Of a stretch of 64,000 nucleotides of DNA, positions 48,671 to 61,297 are shown piece by piece. The translations under genes were made by a program, and so were the position numbers. The stretch is from an uncultured Spirochaetota bacterium (GTDB lineage Bacteria > Spirochaetota > Spirochaetia > SZUA-6 > Fen-1364): the NCBI GenBank assembly GCA_963781885.1, contig CAWAHW010000002.1:160001-224000 (forward strand), written 5' to 3'. Numbering within the stretch: position 1 is the stretch's first letter; every line of letters starts with the position of its first letter. The notes below the pieces were generated by a model. It was not told the DNA's origin and ran no database searches. It worked only from the letters and a program-made list of their open reading frames with translations.

Positions 48671-48729
48671 CAAGGACTCTCTCCTGAGTTAACTTGACAT
48701 TCTAATATATGACTAATTTAGTCAGGTAT
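48667..48729 (+). promoter_or_regulatory. Promoter and Rrf2/IscR type-1-like operator of FTR1 gene
   Basis: TTGACA(48667)-N17-TAACTT; ATATATGACTAATTTAGTCAGGTAT (48705-48729) with core TGACTAA-T-TTAGTCA. Confidence 0.65.
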
Positions 48730-50184
48730 TACCGCGTGCTCCTGATGACGTCGCTTCTTGCGCTGGCCGTGCATCCGCTCACGGCCGCCAACCAGCACGC
48801 CGATCCCCTGTCGCCTGTCGCCGAGGTGGGCAGACAGAGCCTGCAGCTCCTTGCCGCGGGGAATGTCTCCGGCGCGGCCGCGGCGCTCGGGCAATTCGAG
48901 CCGCGCTGGTCGGCCGTGGAGGATGGCATCCGCGCGGAGAGCCCTGCGATTTACGCCCGCATCGAGGTGGCCTCCAGCCGCGCCGCTGCGGCGCTTTCTG
49001 CCGTTCCCCCCGACACCACGCGCGCGGCGCGGGCCCTGAATGACCTGATTGCCGCCACCGACGACTATTCCAGCGGCGCGGCGCGAGGCCAGGCCGCGCG
49101 GGCTCCCGCCGGTATCGCTGCCCTCGCGACACTCATCGGACAGGTGAAAGACTCCATCACCGGTGGCGACATGGCACAGGCCTCCGACCTCATGCAGAGC
49201 TTCACCGAGGTGTGGCCCCTGGCGGAGCCGGAGGTGAAGTCGCGGTCGGCGCAGGCATACGCGCACATCGAATCCGACATGACGCGGGCCTCCTCCTTCC
49301 TGCTCTCGGATGCGGCATCGCAGGTGAAAGCGCGCGAGCCCGTGGAGAGGATCAAGGCCGAGCTGGACGGGCTTTCAGCCGGGACGTCGTACAATGCCTG
49401 GGATGCCGGCCTCATCCTCTTCCGCGAAGGCATGGAAGCCCTCCTGATCATCGCTGCGCTGCTGGCGGCCCTGAAAAAGGCCGGTACGGGCTCGGGCGCC
49501 GGCGTCGTCTGGGCAGGTGCCGGGGTCGGGTTGCTCGGAAGCGTGATCATCGCCGTCATCATTGGATTCGCCATCAGCGGCGCCATGATCGGGTCCGCGC
49601 GCGAGGGGCTGGAAGGGATCGTGGGGCTCGCCTCGGTTCTCCTGATGCTCACGGTCGGTGCCTGGCTGCACAGCCGGTCCAGCCTCAAGGCCTGGAACGG
49701 CTTCGTGAAGGAAAAGGTGGGCACGGCAATCGCCGCCGGGCGCATGGGAGCGCTCTTCACGCTCGCGCTTTTCGCCGTCTTGCGGGAAGGCGTGGAAGCG
49801 GTGGTCTTCTATATCGGCATCGCGCCGGGCATCGGGGCGACGGCCCTTGTTGCCGGCATCGGCGGGGCGCTTCTCCTCCTGGTGGTGATCGGCTTTCTCG
49901 TCATCAGATTCAGTGTCAGGCTGCCGCTGCACTGGGTCTTCCTCGCCGCGACGGTGCTCATCTATTACCTTGCATTCAAGATTACGGGAACGAGCGTCCG
50001 GGCGCTCCAGTCAGCCGGCATGCTGCCCTCACATTTCGCCGAGGGTCTTCCCAGCGCGGGTTTCCTCGGCATGTCCCCGTCCTGGGAATCATTCGTGCCG
50101 CAGGCTTTCGTTCTCATGCTGGTGCTCGTGGAGGTGGCGCTCACCGAGACGCGGAGACTCGCCTCCCGACATCGCGGCGCCTGA
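48709..50184 (+). CDS. FTR1/EfeU family iron permease with N-terminal extracytoplasmic helical domain
   Basis: Two REGxE motifs (FREGME, LREGVE), multiple TM helices, signal peptide and repeated W..VE..I/V+..S..Y..IE helical units. Confidence 0.9.
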   Translation: MTNLVRYYRVLLMTSLLALAVHPLTAANQHADPLSPVAEVGRQSLQLLAAGNVSGAAAALGQFEPRWSAVEDGIRAESPAIYARIEVASSRAAAALSAVPPDTTRAARALNDLIAATDDYSSGAARGQAARAPAGIAALATLIGQVKDSITGGDMAQASDLMQSFTEVWPLAEPEVKSRSAQAYAHIESDMTRASSFLLSDAASQVKAREPVERIKAELDGLSAGTSYNAWDAGLILFREGMEALLIIAALLAALKKAGTGSGAGVVWAGAGVGLLGSVIIAVIIGFAISGAMIGSAREGLEGIVGLASVLLMLTVGAWLHSRSSLKAWNGFVKEKVGTAIAAGRMGALFTLALFAVLREGVEAVVFYIGIAPGIGATALVAGIGGALLLLVVIGFLVIRFSVRLPLHWVFLAATVLIYYLAFKITGTSVRALQSAGMLPSHFAEGLPSAGFLGMSPSWESFVPQAFVLMLVLVEVALTETRRLASRHRGA

Positions 50185-50190
50185 CACAGC

Positions 50191-53100
50191 CTATCGGCGG
50201 GAAGTCTTTTCCTTTTTCTTCCGCAACCGTTCGACCTCTCGCGGCTTTCCCAGACGGGTCCATGCGGCGATGGCCTCGTCGAAACGGCCCAGGTGCTCGA
50301 AGGCCCGCGCCGCCGCGCGCTCGTCCCCCGAGGCCCGGGCAACGCGGAGGGCCGAGTCGTAGTCGTGGCCGTCCATGTACCACCGCACCGCGTCCGGCAT
50401 TTCCCCGCGCTGTTCCGCATACCGGCCCGCAAGGGCCTGGTCCTTTTGTCTGAAACACGCGGCTTCCGCCTGGTCGATCCAGTCGTTCGCCATGAGATGC
50501 GCGACCGCCTCGCGGTAGCGCGCCCGACTCTCGCCGAGCACCACCGCGTTTGCATCCGTGAGCGCGAGCGCCGCGGCCCGGCGCTCGAACTCCGCGATGT
50601 CCCCGGCGGCGAAGGCGGCGCAGGCCGCGAGGCCGGCATCCCCCGTTTCGCGCGCACCGCGATTGACCCTTTCGATGAGGCCCAGGAGGTCCTCCGGCGG
50701 GGACGATCTCAGGAACATGTTGTGCCCAAGGATGCCCATGATGACATTCGCCACCCGGTGGGTGATGAGCATATCGAGGGCCGCCGGCGGAATGAAGAAC
50801 GTGGTGATCATCGCACCGTAGACCTGGTCGAAGACCCTCTCGATCAAGGGCCGCGCCGTCGCGGAGTCGGCGCCCCGCACGCTCGCCGCGAGCATCGTGA
50901 AGGTGACCTCGATGAGCGCCTTGTCCTCCACACCGGCCTGATAGTGCTGCATCCACTGGACGTGGGCGTAGGATTCGACGAACACACCGGAGACCGTGAC
51001 CCCCGGCGCGCTGGCGTAGCGGCGCGCTTCCTCGATCTTGTCGGAGGAGAGGAAGTACTGGAGAGCCTCCTCGTGCCTGCCCAGGCGCAGGCATATCTCC
51101 CGCACGTTTTCCAAATCCATCAGGAGCCTGAATCGCGCGAGGGCGGGGATGAGCTTTCCCTGCTTCAGCATCTGGTGTGCCTCATCGGAAAGGGATCGGG
51201 CTGCCTCCTTGTCATTGGGCATGGAAGCGGACAGGTGCTGGAACAGGTACTTCTGGATGAGGGTGACCGTCGTCTCGCTGTCATCCCCCCTGCGTTCCAT
51301 GACGCGTGCGGCGTCCAGGGGCCTGCCCCGGGCAGCATGGCTTTGCGCCAGGGCCTCGTAGTCGCCCGTCTTCTCGAGCTCCTGCGCCGCCACGACCAGC
51401 TCCTCCGCCTGGAGGAAGAGGGGGCCGGCCTTGTCGGGTATGCCCAGCGCCGCGTAGCGGATGGCAGCCTTCAAGGCCGTGGTGCGGGTCTTGACCGCGG
51501 GTATGGAATCCGCGAGGCGCGCGCGGTTGTCTTCAGACCGGGACGCGTATTGTGCATAGGCTTCCACGGCCCTGCGCACGTCCCCTTTCTTTTCGAAATA
51601 CGCCCCGATGGCTTCCTGGTCGTCGAGCTTGCGGAGGCAGCGGAGGAGCTTTTCATCGCTTGCCGTCTTTTTGTAGAGCTTCGCAGCTTCGCGATAGGAT
51701 CCGCCGCGGAAATACATGTCAGCCGCCTGCTCCCGGCGACCGACCCGCTCCAGGCACATGCCCGCCTCGAGCCACAGGTGCGCCTTTTCGAGGAAGCCCG
51801 CCGCCCGCTCGTCGTCACCCGCCCTGGCCAGGGCGCGGCCCACCTTGTCGAATGCGCCGGCCTTCTCCCAGCAGGCGAGCGCCCGCTGCGGCTCCTTCAA
51901 TTCCTCCCACGCGCGCGCCGCTGCCTCCCAGGCGCCCTCGCTTTCGCGCGCCTGCGCGCCGCACACCGCTTCCCGCCGCTTTTCCCCCAGGCCGGCCCAG
52001 AGACCCCGCGCACGGACCCAGTCCTGGGCGCGCTCGAAGCATTCCGCGGCCTGCCGTTTGTCCCCGGCCTGCTCGAAGAGCGGAGCGGCGCCGGCCCAGT
52101 CTTCCGCCGCCCGGCGCAGCCATCCTTCCGCCAGAGCGAGCTTTCCTTCCGCCCCCGCGTTGCGGAAGCATTCGCGCGCCGCCGCGTAGTGCTCGCGCTC
52201 CAGGAAGTAGTCTCCCTGCGCCTCCCACGCGGCGGGCGTCGACACCGCGCCCCACAGCTCCGCGAGCCTTTCCCGGTCCGCGGTGCGGAATACCAGGGGC
52301 GCGATGGAATCGATGTCCCAGATCGGCGACGGCTCCGGGCCGTCGTAGACGATCAGCGTGTTGCGCGCGCGGGTGACGGCGACGTAGAGCAGCGCAAGCT
52401 CGTGCCGCACGTGCGGGATGCGCGCCTCTTCCACCGGATCCCCCGCGTGTATCGTCCTCCAGGTCGCGCGCGCGGCAGGATCGGCGGCGAACTCCCAGAG
52501 AAAGACCGTGTTCGAACTCCAGGCCTTTTGCCTCGGTGATGGTGAAGACAAGCTCGGTGGCAAGCGCCTGCTTGAGACGGTCCCGCGCCTCCGCGGTCCG
52601 TGTCAGCACGACTTGTCCGGCCGCCCGCATGTCCATGCGCGCCGTCACCTCCCGCTCTGCAAGACCGGCCAGGAGCAGGGGCGGCTTCCCGCCGAACTTC
52701 CACTCCTCGCGCATGTCCGTGTCGGTGACGCCGACGAGGCCCGCCTTCAGGTCGAGCAGCGCGTTGGACAGGCGCACGATGGAGCCGACGCAGCGGAAGT
52801 TGAGACTGAGCCGGTGCACGGGCGGCACGGGGATGCCGCGCGCGTAAAGCTTGTTCTTCACCTCCTCCCAGCGGAAGCCGCTGGGGTTCACGATCTGGCG
52901 CGGGTCGCCCGTGAGGACCACGGAGCGCGGATCTGCCGCCAGTCGGAAGAGCAGCGACACCTGCACGTCGGTGAGGTCCTGCACCTCGTCGCAGACGACC
53001 AGGTCCTGCGCGAACTCGCCCGGGGAGCCGTCCAGCATGCGCAGCGCCGCCTTCGTGAGGTCGAGCTCGTCCCATCCCCCTGATCGGGCAAGCCTGTCCT

Positions 53101-54415
53101 GGTAGAAGACGGCGATCGCGTAGATCGCGCGCCGATCGTAGAGGAACGTCGGAGCGCGCTTCTTTCCCAGGGCAAGGTATTCATCCAGCGAGAGAAGGGG
53201 GGAGGAGAAATCCGCGGCGCTTTTTTCGACCAGCCGCTGGATCTCCTCCAGGGCGCGGCGACAGTCGTCCTCCGAGGCCGGGGCACGCGCGCCCAGCGCG
53301 GTCAGAAGACCCTGGTAGTCTCCCAAGCCGGTGCGCGCGGCGATGAAATGCTCCGCGCGCCGCGCGACGGCGAGCTCCTGCAGCCCGATCAGGTGCTCCC
53401 GCAGCTCCGCGCGCTCGGCGCTGGACGCGTCGCGTGCGAAATAGCGCGCGGCCAGTTGCCCGAGGCGCGCGGGCGCGAGCGGAGGCTTGGAGCCCTTGAT
53501 GATCGACCGTATCTCCTCCCAGACCAGCTCCGCGTCGTAGCTTCGGTGGTCCTTGTGGTCGGCGTAGATGCGCGCGAACTCGGCCATGCCCACTTCGCGC
53601 GCGGGAGGGAAGTCTGCGGCGACGGCCGTCGTGATCTCCTCCAGCAGCTCGCGGAACACGAGAAAGCGCGGTGCCTCCGTTTTTTCCGCGCCCTGCCTTT
53701 TCTCCATGAGACCCGCGTAGATCCTCTGTGCGAGCCTTTTCAGCAGGGGATTGTAGGTGAGGAAAAGCCGTCGACGCGCGGAAGCCGCCCGCAGGAGATA
53801 GTAGACGGAAAGCGTTGTCTTGCCGCTGCCCGCGGTACCGGAGAGCAGCACGGGCGGCACGACGTGCAGGAGCTCTTCCTGCTCCGTGGTGAGGAAAAGG
53901 AACGCCTCGAAGGAGTCGGGATCCGGGGATGAAAGAAGACGCCGCCACTCCGTGTCATCCAGCACGAGCCAGCGCTGCGGACCGTAGTCCTCGGGAACCT
54001 TCTGCTCCACGTCCTCCTGGCTCCGCCACTCCCGGGGCACGCCGTCCAAGGAAAGCTCCTGCCTCTCCTCGCCGTCGAATGGCGCGAAATCCAGGAATGG
54101 CGCATTGCGCGGCGCGATGCGGCGCGCTTCCGCGTTGATGTCGTCGTGCTGCGCGATGCCCCAGACGTAGACGGCGGTGCTCCCGCGATGATCGCCGAGC
54201 GTGAACAGGAGCCGATCGCCCTTGGAAAGACGCGCCTCGAAGACGACGCGGCGGGCGATGCCGCGCAGCTTCTTCACCCGCACACCGGCGTCCCAGAAGC
54301 CGTTTTCCAGGAACTCGAACTTTTCCCGCAGACGCTGTCGTTCCCGCTCGGGCAGCGTCAGGAGGTGACCCTTCAGGGCATCGTTGAGGAGGACGATGTA
54401 GCGGTTTTCCGGCAT
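50191..54415 (-). CDS. RelE-like N-terminal domain + UvrD/SF1 helicase + TPR-like repeats (~1400 aa), frameshift near 52513
   Basis: GTAGSGKTT, FLTYN, VCDEVQDLT, TGDPRQ, LNFR, TITEAKGLEF, LYVAVTRAR; C-terminal A.(C/L)FE.AG helical repeats. Confidence 0.85.
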
Positions 54416-54463: not shown

Positions 54464-55027
54464 TCATTGGTAGTCCTCCATCGTGTCGATGTCGCGGAGT
54501 ATCGTCTCATCGTGCCACGGGAGCTCCCCGACGGAGAAGCGCGCCGCGATCTCCCGCATGTTCCCTTCCACCGGGTCGGCCGCGAGCACGGCGGGAATGA
54601 CGCGCGCGCTCAGGAGCACGGGGTGCCCCCTCCGTCCGCCGAATGTCGGGAAAAGAGCATCCGTTTCCGGGGCATCCCGCAGGGCCGCGAACGCCTCCGC
54701 GGGTATCCACGGCATGTCGCCCAGCGCAATGAAGAATCTCCCCGTGCGGACATGCCGCGCACCGCACTGCAGCGAGCTGAATCTGCCCTTCTCCCAGTCG
54801 GGGTTTTCCACGGCGGTGACGCGCGGATTGGCGCCGAACAGCGCGCGAAGCTCGTCGCCCCGGTAGCCGGTCACGAGGATGACGCGCGCGCACACGCCGA
54901 GCGCCGCTGCCACGACGGTGCCGATGATGGTGCCGTCCCCGAAGGGAAGGATGGGCTTCCACGCCCCCATGCGCGCCGACCTGCCGGCGGCCGGCACGAG
55001 GCAGTCGATGTCCGCGGTTTCCATCAC
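54464..55027 (-). CDS. Molybdenum cofactor cytidylyltransferase-like NTP transferase (MocA/YgfJ)
   Basis: PAAGRSARMGAWK, NPDWEKG..SSL, LGDMP, RGHPV, DIDT. Confidence 0.85.
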   Translation of the reverse strand: MMETADIDCLVPAAGRSARMGAWKPILPFGDGTIIGTVVAAALGVCARVILVTGYRGDELRALFGANPRVTAVENPDWEKGRFSSLQCGARHVRTGRFFIALGDMPWIPAEAFAALRDAPETDALFPTFGGRRGHPVLLSARVIPAVLAADPVEGNMREIAARFSVGELPWHDETILRDIDTMEDYQ

Positions 55028-55112
55028 GCGCCAGAGTACTGCGCGGCGCTGCCAGCCTCAAGTGCGCGCCTTGACCCGGCGGCCGGCAGGCGTTATCGTT
55101 TCTCTCACCCAT

Positions 55113-56321
55113 ATGACGAAGTACAGTCAGGAATTCATCCGCGCGATCCCCAAGTCAGACCTGCACGTGCACCTCGACGGATCGCTCAGGCTTTCCAGCC
55201 TCATCGAGCTGGCGCGCGAACGCAGCATCACGCTTCCCTCGTCCACCGAAGAGGGCATGAACGAGCTTGTCTTCAAGCCCGCCTACAAGAACCTCAACGA
55301 GTACCTCTCCGGGTTCGCCTGGACGCTCAGCGTCATGCAGGACCCCGAGGGCCTGGAGCGCACCGCGTACGAGCTTGCACAGGACAACTGGGCCGAAGGC
55401 GTACGCTACCTCGAGGTGAGGTTTGCGCCGCAGCTCCACATGTCGCCCCAGTTCGGTTTCGACGCCGTGATGCACGCGGTGGACAACGGCATGAAGCGCG
55501 CGCGGGATGAGGCGAACAGGAGCCTCCCTCCCCAGGAGCCGCCCTACGACTACGGCATCATCGTCTGCGCCATGCGCTTCTTCGACGAAAGCTTCTCTGC
55601 CTACTACCGGGACATCTGCCGCCTGCTTTCCAACTCAGGACCGCAGGAGGCGATCCGCGTCGCGAGCCTCGAGCTCGCGCGGGGCGGCGTGCGGATGCGC
55701 CGGGAGACCGACGTGCAGATCGTCGGTTTCGACCTTGCCGGCAGCGAATATGGCTACCCGGCGAGCGCCCACGAGGAATCGTACGACTACGTGCACAAGA
55801 ACTTCATGCGCAAGACCGTGCACGCGGGTGAGGCATACGGTCCCGAGTCGATATTCCAGGCTGTGGCGAAGCTGCACGCCGACAGGATCGGGCACGGGCT
55901 GCACCTCTTCAACGAGCAGATGATCCTGTCCGGCACGGTGAAGGACAAGCAGGCCTACATCGCCAACCTCGTGGACTACATCGCGGAAAACCGCACGACC
56001 ATCGAGGTGTGCCTTACCTCGAACATGCAGACCTCCCCGGCGCTCAAGGACATCAGCGAGCATTCGCTGCGCCAGATGCTCGCTCACAAGCTTTCCCTCA
56101 CGTTCTGCACCGACAACCGCCTCATGTCGCACACCACCGTGGTGCGCGAGCTCACCCTCGCGCTGGAGAACTTCTCCATCGCGCCCGACCAGCTCAAGGA
56201 TATCATCGCCTACGGCTTCAAACGCTCCTTCTATTACCATCCCTATTCGCGCAAGCGCAAATGGGTGCGCCAGATCATCGACTATTACGAGGCGCTGGAG
56301 AAGAAGTTCGGCGTCGCGTAG
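55113..56321 (+). CDS. add: Adenosine deaminase family protein
   Basis: PKSDLHVHLDGS, YLEVRFAP, GFDLAGSE, TVHAGE, RIGHG, EVCLTSN, TDN. Confidence 0.9.
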   Translation: MTKYSQEFIRAIPKSDLHVHLDGSLRLSSLIELARERSITLPSSTEEGMNELVFKPAYKNLNEYLSGFAWTLSVMQDPEGLERTAYELAQDNWAEGVRYLEVRFAPQLHMSPQFGFDAVMHAVDNGMKRARDEANRSLPPQEPPYDYGIIVCAMRFFDESFSAYYRDICRLLSNSGPQEAIRVASLELARGGVRMRRETDVQIVGFDLAGSEYGYPASAHEESYDYVHKNFMRKTVHAGEAYGPESIFQAVAKLHADRIGHGLHLFNEQMILSGTVKDKQAYIANLVDYIAENRTTIEVCLTSNMQTSPALKDISEHSLRQMLAHKLSLTFCTDNRLMSHTTVVRELTLALENFSIAPDQLKDIIAYGFKRSFYYHPYSRKRKWVRQIIDYYEALEKKFGVA

Positions 56322-58867: not shown

Positions 58868-59773
58868 ATGAAAAGCACGCACCAGGTCATCCAGAAGGCG
58901 CGCGAGCTGGGCATCGGGATTCCGGCATTTAATGTCGCGCATCTCCCCATGACCGCGCCCATTATCCGCGCAGTGGTGGACCAGGATTCCTTCGCCCTCC
59001 TGGAGGTTTCCCGCATTGACTGGCTGAAGTTCGGCGCGGAAAGCCCCGCGGCCGTCATGGCCGAGTACAAGCGGCACGAGGACCCGCAGCACGTGCGCAT
59101 CCACCTCGACCACGTGCCTGCCATCGATGAAGACCGGCAGCCGGTCGACTACGTGGCAGTGATCGCGGAGGCGCTTGGGCTGGGCTACCAGTCGGTCATG
59201 ATCGACGCCTCGCGGCTCGGCCTGGAGGAGAATATCCGCGCAACGCGCACCGTGGCGGATCTTGCGCACAAGACGGGCATTCCCGTGGAGGCGGAGCTGG
59301 GCGCGGTGCTCGGGCACGAGGCAGGACCGCTGCCGCCGTACGAGGAGCTTTTTGCGTCCGGGCGCGGGTTCACGCGGCCCAATGAGGCAGCGCGCTTCGC
59401 GCGGGAGTCCGGCTGCGACTGGCTGTCGGTTGCCATCGGCAACATACACGGCGCCGTGGGGGAGGCGACGAAGAACCAGAAAAAACTGGAAGCGCGTCTG
59501 GCGCTCGATCACCTCTCGCGGCTTTCCGATGTGACCGGAATTCCGCTCGTGCTCCACGGCGGCTCGGGAATACGGCAGGAGGATATGCTCGCCTCCATGA
59601 AGCGCGGCATCGCCAAGGTAAACGTGGGAACCGAGATTCGCCAGGCCTATGAGCTCGCGCTCAAGACGACGGGAAGCGAAAAGGCCGCACAGGATGCGGT
59701 CTACGAGCGCACGGTGTCACTCATCCGGGACTGGTTTAAGCTCACGGAAATCAGGGGAAAGATTCTTTCGTAG
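58868..59773 (+). CDS. Class II ketose-bisphosphate aldolase (FbaA/GatY family)
   Basis: PAFN, IHLDH, SVMIDAS, VEAELG, LSVAIGNIHG, LVLHGGSG, KVNVGT. Confidence 0.92.
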   Translation: MKSTHQVIQKARELGIGIPAFNVAHLPMTAPIIRAVVDQDSFALLEVSRIDWLKFGAESPAAVMAEYKRHEDPQHVRIHLDHVPAIDEDRQPVDYVAVIAEALGLGYQSVMIDASRLGLEENIRATRTVADLAHKTGIPVEAELGAVLGHEAGPLPPYEELFASGRGFTRPNEAARFARESGCDWLSVAIGNIHGAVGEATKNQKKLEARLALDHLSRLSDVTGIPLVLHGGSGIRQEDMLASMKRGIAKVNVGTEIRQAYELALKTTGSEKAAQDAVYERTVSLIRDWFKLTEIRGKILS

Positions 59774-60640
59774 CACGCTCACGCAGGAAACCGGCGAGCT
59801 CTCCGAGGGCAGCGCCGGCAGGTCCTCCTCTCACGGCCGCCAGCGCCGCGCATGCTGCTTCCGCGGCGTCCGCTGCCTTTGCGCGCAGAACCATGTGCGA
59901 AGGGAAAGCCGCATCCCCGTCTGAAAGGTCATCCGCGATCTGGAAGAGCAGACCCAGGGCGCTGCCGTATTCGTCGAGGCCGCGGACCATCGGCGCCGTG
60001 CCCCCGCCGATGAGGGCTCCCGCCCTGCAGCATGCGGCAAGCAGGCTCGCCGTCTTGGCTTCCGTGATGCCGAGGTATTCGTCGATCGTCGCGTCCCGTC
60101 CCGCCGACCGTATCCCTTCCTCGAGTATTTCCCCCTGGCACATCCGCGCAGTCACCGTGAGGAAAGCATCGAGGAGCTCCTGCCGCACGAGCGCGCCGGT
60201 CCCCGGCAGACCGGATATCTCCTGGAAGAAGCGCGCGTAGAAGAGATCGCCGACGAGCACAGCCGCGGTCCTGCCATAGGATATGTGGAGGCTGGGAGAT
60301 CCCGGCGATTGTCAGAGCCGTCGACGATGTCGTCGTGAGCGAGAGAAGCCGTATGCAGGAGCTCCACGGCTGCCGCGGCGCGCACGAGCGGTTCCGGGGC
60401 CATCTCCTCCGATCCCGCCGCGCGCGCCGCCAGCAGCACCAGCATGGGCCGCAGCATCTTGCCTTCGTTCAGGAAGAGGTGGCGGACCGGGGCATGTATC
60501 GACGCACCGCGCCCGCCGGGCAGCAATGACACCTGTCCCACCTCTTCCAGGATGGCCTCGATCCTGCGCGCGACGCGGAGCAGGTCACTGGCCACGGGAA
60601 CGGCGAAGCGCCGCAGCGCCTCGTCGGTCCCCGCGACGAC
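59751..60640 (-). CDS. Polyprenyl synthetase family protein (frameshifted at ~60270-60300; start approximate; short C-terminus)
   Basis: GKMLRP, ELLHTASLAHDDIVD..RR, LVGD, GEILE, KTASL, GLLFQIADDLSD. Confidence 0.8.
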
Positions 60641-60642
60641 GC

Positions 60643-61213
60643 TTACTTGGGTATCCCGCCCGGCCACTTCGCGAAGGCCTCGATGTGCTGCCAGTAGGCG
60701 GGGAACCCGACGATGATCCAGACCACCGCGCTTCCCAGGGCCGCGATGGCAACCAGGATGCGCAGCCATTTCAGCTTCGGGAAGGCGAGGGCGGGGAGCG
60801 TGATGATGGCCGTGCCGCCCGTGATGGCGAAGCCTCCCGCCGCGGCAAGCGGTTCCGAAGTCAGGCCCAGATTCAAGATGCGCACGCCCAGGAGGACCGC
60901 CACCGCGCCGGCAAAGAACGCGTAGATGCCGATCGTGAGCAGGTTCCAGCCGAACGCCACGGAAATGCCGGCCGACGAAGAGGAAGCCGCCGAAGAGCAC
61001 CGTCATTTCCCCGTACATGATGTTGTAGGGGCCGGGGAGCGGCCAGTTGAAGATCATATGGAAGCCCGCCACGAGCGCGATGGCACCCGTGAGCAGGTAC
61101 CCCGGGATGACCTTCTTCGGGTCCTTGTCGATCCATTTTCCAATGAACAGGGCGTGGATGACCAAGGCAGCCACCATGTTGACGAGCATCAAGGTCAGGA
61201 AATCTATGAACAT
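60643..61213 (-). CDS. DUF981-like membrane protein, frameshift near 60970
   Basis: MFIDFLTLML, WPLPGPYNIMYGE, hydrophobic helices, AYWQH; AGGAGG RBS. Confidence 0.75.
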
Positions 61214-61297
61214 CGTGTACCTCCTGACGGGAAGACAGCATTTTGCTGTATGCTTATACAATAGCTATTTGGTAATATATTGGCAAAGGCGAAGCGA

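Follow-up and report, generated by a model that had tools for sequence, protein, structure and literature searches.

A single-chain protein joining an N-terminal domain of RelE/ParE toxin fold, a conserved acidic linker, a UvrD-type helicase of superfamily 1 (SF1) and a C-terminal alpha-solenoid was identified in a stretch of DNA of 64,000 nucleotides from an uncultured Spirochaetota bacterium (GenBank assembly GCA_963781885.1, contig CAWAHW010000002.1, positions 160,001 to 224,000 of the forward strand; this whole stretch is termed the window, with position 1 being its first letter). The gene lies on the minus strand at 50191..54415 and, once a single extra base is removed, encodes a product of approximately 1407 amino acids (aa), the length of its closest intact homologue, P0003 (1407 aa, 90% identity over the N-terminal half). 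The parts of this protein, namely a RelE-type toxin, an SF1 helicase and repeats resembling tetratricopeptide repeats (TPRs), are familiar, while their fusion is not. The protein is read here, tentatively, as a self-contained RelE-type RNase, inhibited in cis and gated by nucleoside triphosphate (NTP), that would act in surveillance or defence; this is plausible but far from assured. A preliminary description of the gene had proposed a comparable layout of effector, NTPase and repeat sensor. Its account of the RelE fold, the helicase, the solenoid, the absence of an antitoxin and a resemblance to eukaryotic TRANK1 held in the present analysis, while an association with defence islands was not seen.

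The N-terminal domain (aa 1-100; 54116..54415, minus strand) was assigned using an AlphaFold2 (AF2) model, Foldseek, VIA-align, sequence alignment and hhalign. The AF2 model of aa 1-175, for which 47 homologues were used, gave a beta-alpha-alpha-beta4 order over residues 7-89, with strands at 7-11, 45-51, 57-62, 67-76 and 79-89 and helices at 12-20 and 23-37. Foldseek comparison of this domain to the PDB placed RelE, YoeB, YafQ and ParE toxins together with Cami1 in the top rows, with probabilities of up to 0.99. VIA-align against 48,161 representative chains identified 21 chains with a Z-score of at least 5, and each of the 21 is either a toxin of RelE, YoeB, HigB, YafQ or ParE type or the RelE part of Cami1, with archaeal RelE 1wmi_C scoring highest (Z 7.4, root-mean-square deviation 3.0, 85 of 88 residues). 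Z-scores below 8 are common by the tool's own warning, and the weight of this result lies in the uniform list and the near-complete coverage of the toxin chains.

Sequence comparison led to the same family. A profile of the N-domain, made from 28 diverse sequences of at least 10 phyla and searched against 5.8 billion sequences, matched the stand-alone proteins P0165-P0168 (E 1.8e-4 to 7e-3). One of these is labelled 'mRNA interferase RelE/StbE' by JGI, and three match Pfam ParE_like, ParE_toxin or Gp49 (PF24732, PF05016, PF05973), with P0165 matching none. Alignment of the N-domain with these stand-alone toxins by hhalign gave 97.8% (E 1.1e-12, 86 columns), the toxins reading ..LRVKKIKGTQGIWEARVDRGYRMTF...VGPHD and the N-domain family ..VRVKKLKG.S.KVIFEARLDRGDRILFTLG...IYVWGIV.HDD. 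As the predicted fold and the independent sequence evidence agree, the RelE/ParE assignment, first suggested in the preliminary description from its sequence pattern, is sound at the domain level. Residues 1-175 matched no Pfam family even at E≤1 and no NCBIfam or PADLOC model, and a stand-alone form of the N-domain itself was not established, with the 46 short matches being mostly fragments from short contigs or weak toxin matches. In the 5778-aa protein P0252, nine separate stretches were found to match profile positions 33-60, which looks like a repeated motif fragment rather than the whole domain. A YoeB-like toxin gene was also found elsewhere in the genome from which the window derives (PF06769, 39.5 bits, above the cut-off; 305631-305813 of contig C5, locus L090).

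Residues L36, W41, E60, R68, F71, T72, H90 and D91 were invariant in all 28 N-domains, with K15, K48 and K49 being near-invariant. In a MAFFT alignment with RelE of E. coli (NC_000913), E60, R62, R68 and the H90 region were located at RelE K52, K54, R61 and R81/R83, respectively. RelE K52, R61 and R81 are catalytic positions, with Glu, Arg and His (E46, R65 and H83) as their equivalents in YoeB. Because the MAFFT columns coincide with these positions, the E60/R68/H90 constellation looks YoeB-like. Mean pairwise identity of the N-domain was 0.58, compared to 0.54-0.60 for the helicase core. The domain was also found to be basic, with an isoelectric point (pI) of 9.4-11.1 in 28 of 28 sequences (9.85 in P0003) and of 9.9-10.9 in the stand-alone toxins. 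Conserved residues, identity and charge speak for an N-domain that may be active. Directly after it lies a conserved, strongly acidic linker of 75 residues (aa 101-175; 53891..54115, minus strand; pI 4.05 in P0003), and it is proposed that this linker may serve as an antitoxin-like mask of the basic N-domain in cis.

The UvrD-type SF1 helicase core (aa 176 to ~712; 52252..53890, minus strand) was delimited by Pfam (PF00580, PF13245, PF13538) and by its motifs, all on the minus strand: Walker A GTAGSGKT (aa 193-200; 53816-53839), motif II CDEVQD (aa 475-480; 52976-52993), the GDPRQ motif as TGDPRQ (aa 502-507; 52895-52912), EAKGLEF (52511-52534) and LLYVAVTRAR (52357-52392). A large insert between Walker A and motif II includes the family signature LGKKRAPTF (53144-53170). 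Every motif quoted in the preliminary description was found in place, namely GTAGSGKT, CDEVQD and TGDPRQ of the helicase, VRVKKLRG (aa 45-52), VFEARLSKGDRLLFT (aa 58-72) and VWGIAQHDD (aa 84-92) of the N-domain and the further motifs LLYVAVTRARNT, STPAAWEAQGDYF and HYAAARECFRNAG. In the window's protein, Pfam UvrD-helicase (PF00580) scored 32 bits (cut-off 23) and AAA_19 28.3 bits (cut-off 25.1), with UvrD_C and UvrD_C_2 above cut-off in P0003. Walker A, DEVQD, GDPxQ, NFRC, EAKGLEF and LYVAVTRAR were near-invariant across 47 homologues, which bears out the full UvrD-type motif set described earlier, and for this reason an active ATPase is to be expected. Searching of the ESM Atlas gave matches to UvrD-helicase clusters only.

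Two plasmid proteins were observed to match the helicase part. A 'UvrD-helicase domain-containing protein' present in 100 Shigella and 13 Escherichia records (of 131 records with a match) aligned with residues 408-701 only, at approximately 28% identity. As this stretch takes in the segment ahead of motif II that is specific to the family, the protein may belong, distantly, to the same helicase lineage. On Polymorphobacter megasporae plasmid NZ_CP081849.1, a protein annotated with ankyrin repeats was found to match residues 408-689, a bacterial pairing of ankyrin and helicase that recalls the ankyrin repeats of TRANK1-like proteins.

The C-terminal alpha-solenoid (686 aa, approximately 46 short helices; 50194..52251, minus strand) starts at the helicase-solenoid junction STPAAWEAQGDYF (52204-52242, minus strand) and was modelled by AF2 as entirely helical, with a predicted local distance difference test score (pLDDT) of 93.3. 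Its best Foldseek matches were TPR arms of intraflagellar transport complex A (IFT-A), Ski3, Ctr9, Naa15 and clathrin heavy chain, which agrees with the TPR-like repeats first described. Template modelling (TM) scores were low (0.14-0.23), and the modelled solenoid is for this reason taken to be generically TPR-like rather than a specific relative of any match. The C-terminal half gave only sub-threshold TPR, Clathrin and IFT-TPR matches in Pfam, and no family was assigned to the solenoid by Pfam, NCBIfam or PADLOC.

Of all parts of the protein, the solenoid evolves most rapidly within the 1400-aa family (identity of 0.26-0.38 versus 0.54-0.60), at about twice the rate of the rest. Among more distant relatives it is exchanged altogether. 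An exhaustive search with the N-domain profile gave 247 clusters at E≤1e-3 (161 at E≤1e-10), and from 150 listed clusters a second tier of 38 proteins was taken (E 1e-22 to 1e-11, 341-1899 aa; all of at least 500 aa except the 341-aa P0241, with other shorter rows and the 5778-aa P0252 excluded). A helicase was retained in 37 of the 38, of which 36 matched Pfam UvrD-helicase and one only UvrD_C_2, with the remaining protein matching nothing. Their C-termini were found to carry leucine-rich repeats (LRRs; P0242), WG beta-repeats (P0248), Sel1/TPR repeats (P0221), many classical TPRs (P0277) or clathrin/SNAP-like repeats (P0256, P0257, P0272, P0236), while some of these proteins are just 820-930 aa in total and some lack C-terminal repeats. 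A conserved N-domain and helicase with exchanged C-termini suggests a sensor role for the latter, because a constant core of effector and motor with interchangeable repeats is the pattern of NLR-like and other conflict proteins. This swapping, by analogy, appears to be the strongest comparative argument for sensing, and together with the rapid evolution of the solenoid it lends indirect support to the repeat sensor that had been put forward.

Relatives of the protein were also sought among eukaryotes. A search with residues 440-900 of P0003 among proteins longer than 2464 aa gave five matches (P0295-P0299), including the oyster protein P0296 (3809 aa), named 'TPR and ankyrin repeat-containing protein 1-like' by NCBI, and P0295 from the green alga Cymbomonas, which combines ankyrin and UvrD parts (3303 aa; BLASTP E 6e-35). 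BLASTP aligned residues 391-1032 of P0003 with residues 2105-2846 of P0296 (E 2e-37), covering the helicase, the junction and approximately 300 aa of solenoid. The match includes family-specific stretches outside of the motifs (LSLDEYLALGKKRAPNF versus LSKQEYLDLGRKRAPNF) and the junction itself (STPAAWEAQGDYFLEREHYAAARECF versus STSEEWLKRGEEFMKHSLYEVAAKCF; STP..W..GD.F). A second segment (P0003 26-218, P0296 1621-1876; E 3e-4) was found to run from the RelE-like domain through Walker A. With hhalign, the full-family profile matched P0296 at 100% (E 1e-47, 527 columns) and the N-domain profile matched its residues 1616-1727, upstream of the helicase, at 91.2% (E 1e-6). P0297 (4696 aa) also matched the N-domain profile (74%, E 2.7e-5; 'FEARINRSRRVLW...VWALIYDHDDI'), and Glu, Arg and His-Asp are kept at the E60, R68 and H90/D91 columns in the alignments of both P0296 and P0297. 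The N-domain profile was not detected by hhalign in algal P0295 or plant P0299, and P0298 begins inside the helicase. In a tree of the helicase region the five long proteins formed one clade (Shimodaira-Hasegawa-like approximate likelihood ratio test 100), which sits among the bacterial clades at no firm position.

These sequence comparisons give a firm case for homology between the bacterial family and TRANK1-like proteins, the resemblance to which had been noted in the preliminary description; that this extends to human TRANK1 is a prediction from the oyster protein and the other long proteins compared. It is possible, if doubtful, that the bacterial RelE-like/SF1-helicase/solenoid proteins and animal TRANK1 represent one ancient module, with the TRANK1 core being an NTP-gated RelE-type RNase that stops translation upon a trigger. 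By the titles listed, the literature on TRANK1 concerns psychiatric genetics, and the gene is presented, in the abstract of PMC8724122, as a robust risk gene for bipolar disorder whose role is little known. Excerpts of PMC5702629 and PMC12133567 place it among genes induced by virus or interferon, namely, for crocodile cells, among those that a viral mimic induces most strongly (log2 fold change +4.72) and as a listed interferon-stimulated gene in bat organoids. Nothing relevant joining TRANK1 to RelE, prokaryotic UvrD or phage was found in the literature searched. The family and the oyster protein have in common a three-part module and its candidate catalytic residues. If the TRANK1 reading is true, this would be a further immune mechanism common to bacteria and animals. 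The small, tractable bacterial homologues would make the biochemistry of the module directly testable.

Among bacteria, the word-indexed protein search returned 528 proteins, of which the top 120 are mostly 1390-1470 aa in length and align, with identities of 47-90%, over 96-100% of the first 640 residues. A total of 91 loci were confirmed among GTDB representative genomes, and 80 of them were retained. The majority of these belong to Spirochaetota, with others in Neomarinimicrobiota, 'delta proteobacteria', Acidobacteriota, Ignavibacteriota, Calditrichota, KSB1 and further groups, and homologues were found in the cultured non-pathogens Rectinema subterraneum SURF-ANA1 and Acanthopleuribacter pedis KCTC 12899. 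Presence was patchy at each level. Of 41 related genomes, with the window's own counted, 19 gave the gene (8 of the 17 of high quality), as did 9 of 20 other genomes of the same genus. In a phylum-wide sample of 401 high-quality genomes, again including the window's own, the N-domain profile matched in 4. On this patchiness the gene is classed as accessory and not core. Some large Spirochaetia genomes were observed to hold two copies (L047 and L065 on CBDBDQ010000005.1, L041/L049, L052/L069), one pair being approximately 13 kb apart. A quick LG+G4 tree of the first 760 aa of 60 full-length members gave one clade with Acidobacteriota, Ignavibacteriota, Calditrichota and others, and a second with Spirochaetota in which Marinimicrobia, 'delta proteobacteria' and one Pseudomonadota are nested; this topology is consistent with largely vertical inheritance accompanied by some transfer and frequent loss. 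Two cyanobacterial plasmids were also found to carry relatives with the N-domain, the one in Crinalium lying between ParA and an integrase and near DUF262 and DUF3696 genes.

The immediate neighbours of the window's gene are a MobA-like NTP transferase upstream on the same strand (187 aa; 54464..55027, minus strand; PF12804, E 2.9e-31) and a convergent FTR1 iron permease downstream (48709..50184, plus strand), the latter being syntenic only with the closest relative, locus L010. The MobA-like protein is not of an antitoxin type and is not conserved beside homologues. Its gene sits under the 5' part of a plus-strand open reading frame (ORF), 54879-56321, for an adenosine deaminase; the deaminase domain of this ORF extends from aa 91 on, so its true start is probably later. 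Neighbouring ORFs in the related loci were called crudely (the longest ones without overlap, from 60 aa upward), and clustering of 905 of these from the 80 loci recovered the target in 77 loci and the next commonest family in 10. No antitoxin or other conserved partner was identified among them, in agreement with the lack of an adjacent antitoxin reported earlier.

Of the 156 ORFs lying no more than two genes away from the target in 46 loci, a further scan covered 122, from 40 loci. Pfam identified neighbours of toxin-antitoxin, defence or mobile type in 8 of the 40 loci (L021, L025, L028, L029, L042, L045, L060, L069). PADLOC at E≤1e-10 gave matches for 13 of the 122 proteins. System-specific matches occurred in two of the 40 loci, namely L042, with three PDC-S01 proteins, and L069, where one match was a fragment of type I specificity and the other was Schlafen-like, and the other eight matched proteins, from seven loci, were generic cross-hits (ABC ATPases, a DEAD helicase, methyltransferase, subtilase, glycosyl hydrolase and transporters). 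The SmpB gene, encoding the partner of tmRNA, was seen directly upstream of the homologue in one locus, that of a 'delta proteobacterium' (L033, 9411-9929).

Under the reading of the protein as a cis-inhibited, NTP-gated RNase, the RelE-like domain would at rest be kept harmless within the chain, possibly by the acidic linker, with no separate antitoxin involved. The solenoid, perhaps with the helicase, would recognise a trigger, which could be a foreign protein, a nucleic acid or a stalled complex, and an NTP-dependent rearrangement of the helicase would then expose the RelE-like domain. Once freed, this domain would cut RNA, most likely mRNA on the ribosome in the manner of RelE and YoeB, and translation would stop. 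A role in defence is suggested by the architecture, the swapping of C-termini, the patchy distribution and the expression of the eukaryotic relative, and not by the gene neighbourhood.

A number of observations weigh against this reading. UvrD-type helicases usually have DNA, not mRNA, as their substrate. At the level of the N-domain, the AF2 model is of middling confidence (pLDDT 67.7), the Foldseek E-values are 0.02 or higher and all Z-scores lie below 8. Sequence searching of the PDB with the domain and with its profile gave no toxin (the best matches being L24 and a McrB-type GTPase, at E of at least 0.027), hhalign of the N-domain profile with the single E. coli RelE was not significant (0.8%), and the mapping of E60/R68/H90 to the catalytic positions of RelE and YoeB depends on a MAFFT alignment. 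At the level of the whole protein, PADLOC returned GajB and RTasHel matches over motif stretches of no more than 36 bits (GajB no more than 32.5) and no other model. As for its surroundings, the neighbours scanned are mostly metabolic or transport genes, system-specific defence neighbours are confined to the two loci named, defence-island association was not seen across the 40 loci and a search of 50,697 phage records gave no match. Grouping in the tree is for the most part by phylum, with few nested foreign groups and with synteny within clades, for which long vertical residence is a better fit than the rapid turnover of defence genes.

Several of these observations would also suit a role in RNA or ribosome quality control, in which the RelE-like domain would cut A-site mRNA of stalled ribosomes and the helicase and TPR arm would then extract the RNA or clear it, in a single chain and by analogy with Ski2-Ski3 or with Upf1-type surveillance. 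RelE-family enzymes are established to act on the ribosome, conservation of sequence is high across phyla, the mostly phylum-congruent tree and the housekeeping neighbourhoods are as such a role would have them, and the SmpB gene of L033 stands beside a homologue in one of 40 loci. The best structural matches of the solenoid also include Ski3, of the ribosome-bound SKI complex, and Naa15 of NatA, but at TM-scores of 0.14-0.23 these are generic for long TPR arrays. The helicase is of UvrD type and not of Ski2 or Upf1 type, the swapped LRR, WG and Sel1 C-termini resemble ligand sensors, and a distribution of 4 in 401 genomes of the phylum and 8 in 17 high-quality relatives is odd for a function of this kind. 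A quality-control role is considered unlikely.

The state of the gene in the window has also to be weighed. The one frameshift and the product of about 1400 aa given in the preliminary description were borne out. Two overlapping minus-strand ORFs were found, 51815..54415 (866 aa) and 50191..52563 (790 aa). Sensible reading in the first ends at ..TEAKGLEFE (aa 635, 52511) and in the second begins at TVFLWEF (52509), with the DNA at the break being gag ttc gaA C acg gtc. The frameshift site (52510..52512, minus strand) is one extra base in GA(A)C ACG, within the helicase motif KGLEF(D/E)TVF, and across it P0003 reads uninterrupted (..GLEFDTVFLWEF.. / ..KGLEFDTVFLWEF..). Comparison of the window with L010, the locus of P0003, by blastn (82% nucleotide identity) showed a lone uncompensated extra base at approximately 52512, with all other gaps being paired and compensating and no other net frameshift in the gene. 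A programmed frameshift was rejected because the shift is not conserved, the extra base being missing from P0003 and 60 of 80 related loci having an uninterrupted ORF of at least 1150 aa. Scans of the gene for tandem repeats, promoters and terminators gave nothing above shuffled sequence.

Assembly error is the most likely source of the frameshift in the window's copy, as the same kind of split affects two genes close by. DUF981 is divided between minus-strand ORFs 60152..61264 (profile positions 1-83) and 60643..61002 (86-185), and a polyprenyl synthetase between 60152..61264 (4-73) and 59751..60311 (70-191). Both split genes (window 59751-61264) lie 6-8 kb from the gene and suggest indel errors in the assembly, which consists of seven contigs. 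It is also conceivable, and thought improbable, that the one-base insertion is genuine and the locus a real and recent pseudogene that is non-functional in this genome. The frameshift is after all present in the assembled sequence, loss of accessory genes is frequent and broken copies also occur in the relatives G009, G018 and G021. These broken copies, however, are all in few-contig assemblies of 60-74% estimated completeness and are therefore as expected of indel-prone long-read assemblies. Also at odds with a pseudogene is the finding of one uncompensated indel in 4.2 kb, with both halves otherwise open and 78-90% identical to P0003, while the polyprenyl synthetase is among the genes within 8 kb that are broken alike.

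A further alternative to the RNase reading is that of a DNA-directed helicase, acting in repair, in recombination or on plasmid or foreign DNA, whose toxin-fold domain would have lost catalysis and bind nucleic acid or protein, or would act on gyrase like ParE. Pfam and NCBIfam relate the motor only to the UvrD, PcrA, Rep and RecB DNA helicases, and the lack of an antitoxin is as expected of a harmless domain. The nearest stand-alone toxins match models named ParE_like and ParE_toxin, but such Pfam names do not separate RNases from gyrase poisons, as stated in a portion of Gerdes 2025. E60, R68, H90 and D91 show no variation and conservation of the domain equals that of the ATPase motifs, which would be unusual for a degenerate module; in addition, the gene is not core and the motor falls far under the NCBIfam equivalog cut-offs (31 versus 911 bits for PcrA). 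We hold a DNA-directed role to be quite improbable. A narrower version, that of a core repair helicase orthologous to UvrD, PcrA, Rep or RecB, was rejected on equivalog scores of approximately 30 bits against cut-offs of 700-1100 (the best being 30.9 against 911, for PcrA) and on presence in 4 of 401 genomes of the phylum.

With regard to known systems, the N-domain resembles the type II toxins RelE, YoeB, HigB and ParE in its BECR fold (Z 5-7.4, approximately 85 of 88 residues) and its basic charge, and has in common with the stand-alone toxins P0165-P0168 the signature VKK(L/I)KG..(F/W)EAR.DRG.R..F...HD. It differs from type II toxins in being fused to a helicase-solenoid of 1300 aa, in lacking an antitoxin gene and in lacking a Pfam toxin match. 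If the RNase is active, the family would represent a way of keeping a RelE toxin safe without an antitoxin. A survey from 2025 of RelE/ParE toxins with one or more domains (PMC11980606) states, in the sections available, that it excluded many multidomain proteins for which no antitoxin could be identified. Its main text does not mention helicase, UvrD, TPR or SF1, and its supplements in text form contain neither 'helicase' nor 'UvrD', the few TPR or tetratricopeptide terms there being an antitoxin annotation and an accession number. No description of an antitoxin-free RelE-helicase-repeat protein with swappable C-termini was found in the literature searched.

The TRANK1-like proteins P0296 and P0297 have the same order of RelE-like domain, UvrD-type helicase with LG(K/R)KRAPNF, junction ST..EW..G..F and solenoid. 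The eukaryotic proteins differ in their length of 3300-4700 aa and in carrying, by Pfam, repeats ahead of the module, namely Ank in P0295 and P0296 and TPR in P0296, after which the TRANK1-like family is named; Pfam found no Ank or N-terminal TPR repeats in the bacterial proteins. Cami1, a CARF-RelE ancillary nuclease of type III CRISPR systems, likewise has a RelE-fold RNase fused to a sensor and does not need an antitoxin, and its chain 8phb_A was the second-best structural match of the N-domain (Z 7.0). For sensing it has a CARF domain, the ligand of which is cyclic oligoadenylate, and it has neither helicase nor solenoid. A helicase carrying a RelE-like nuclease at its N-terminus has been described, in an available part of 10.64898/2026.09.30.754977, as a neighbour of Tiamat ('Type I-K') in a putative defence context. 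Compared by that description, it differs in belonging to a multi-gene neighbourhood with Tiamat and a methyltransferase, whereas the family described here stands alone. No other printed mention of a RelE-like domain N-terminal to a helicase in a defence context was found in the literature searched.

Gabija GajB and other UvrD-like defence helicases belong to the same helicase superfamily, as is reflected in the partial PADLOC matches to GajB, but no GajA-like neighbour is present here and neither the N- nor the C-terminal part has a PADLOC match. A parallel in layout is seen with Avs and NLR-like STAND NTPases, in which effector, NTPase and variable repeat sensor are likewise joined in one chain and to which the swapping of TPR, LRR and WG repeats is also comparable. 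The motor in those proteins is a STAND ATPase, whereas here it is an SF1 helicase, with nSTAND3 matching at the P-loop only below threshold (11-24 versus 27.2 bits). If its RNase is active, the family would be a helicase-based counterpart to NLR-like single-chain immunity.

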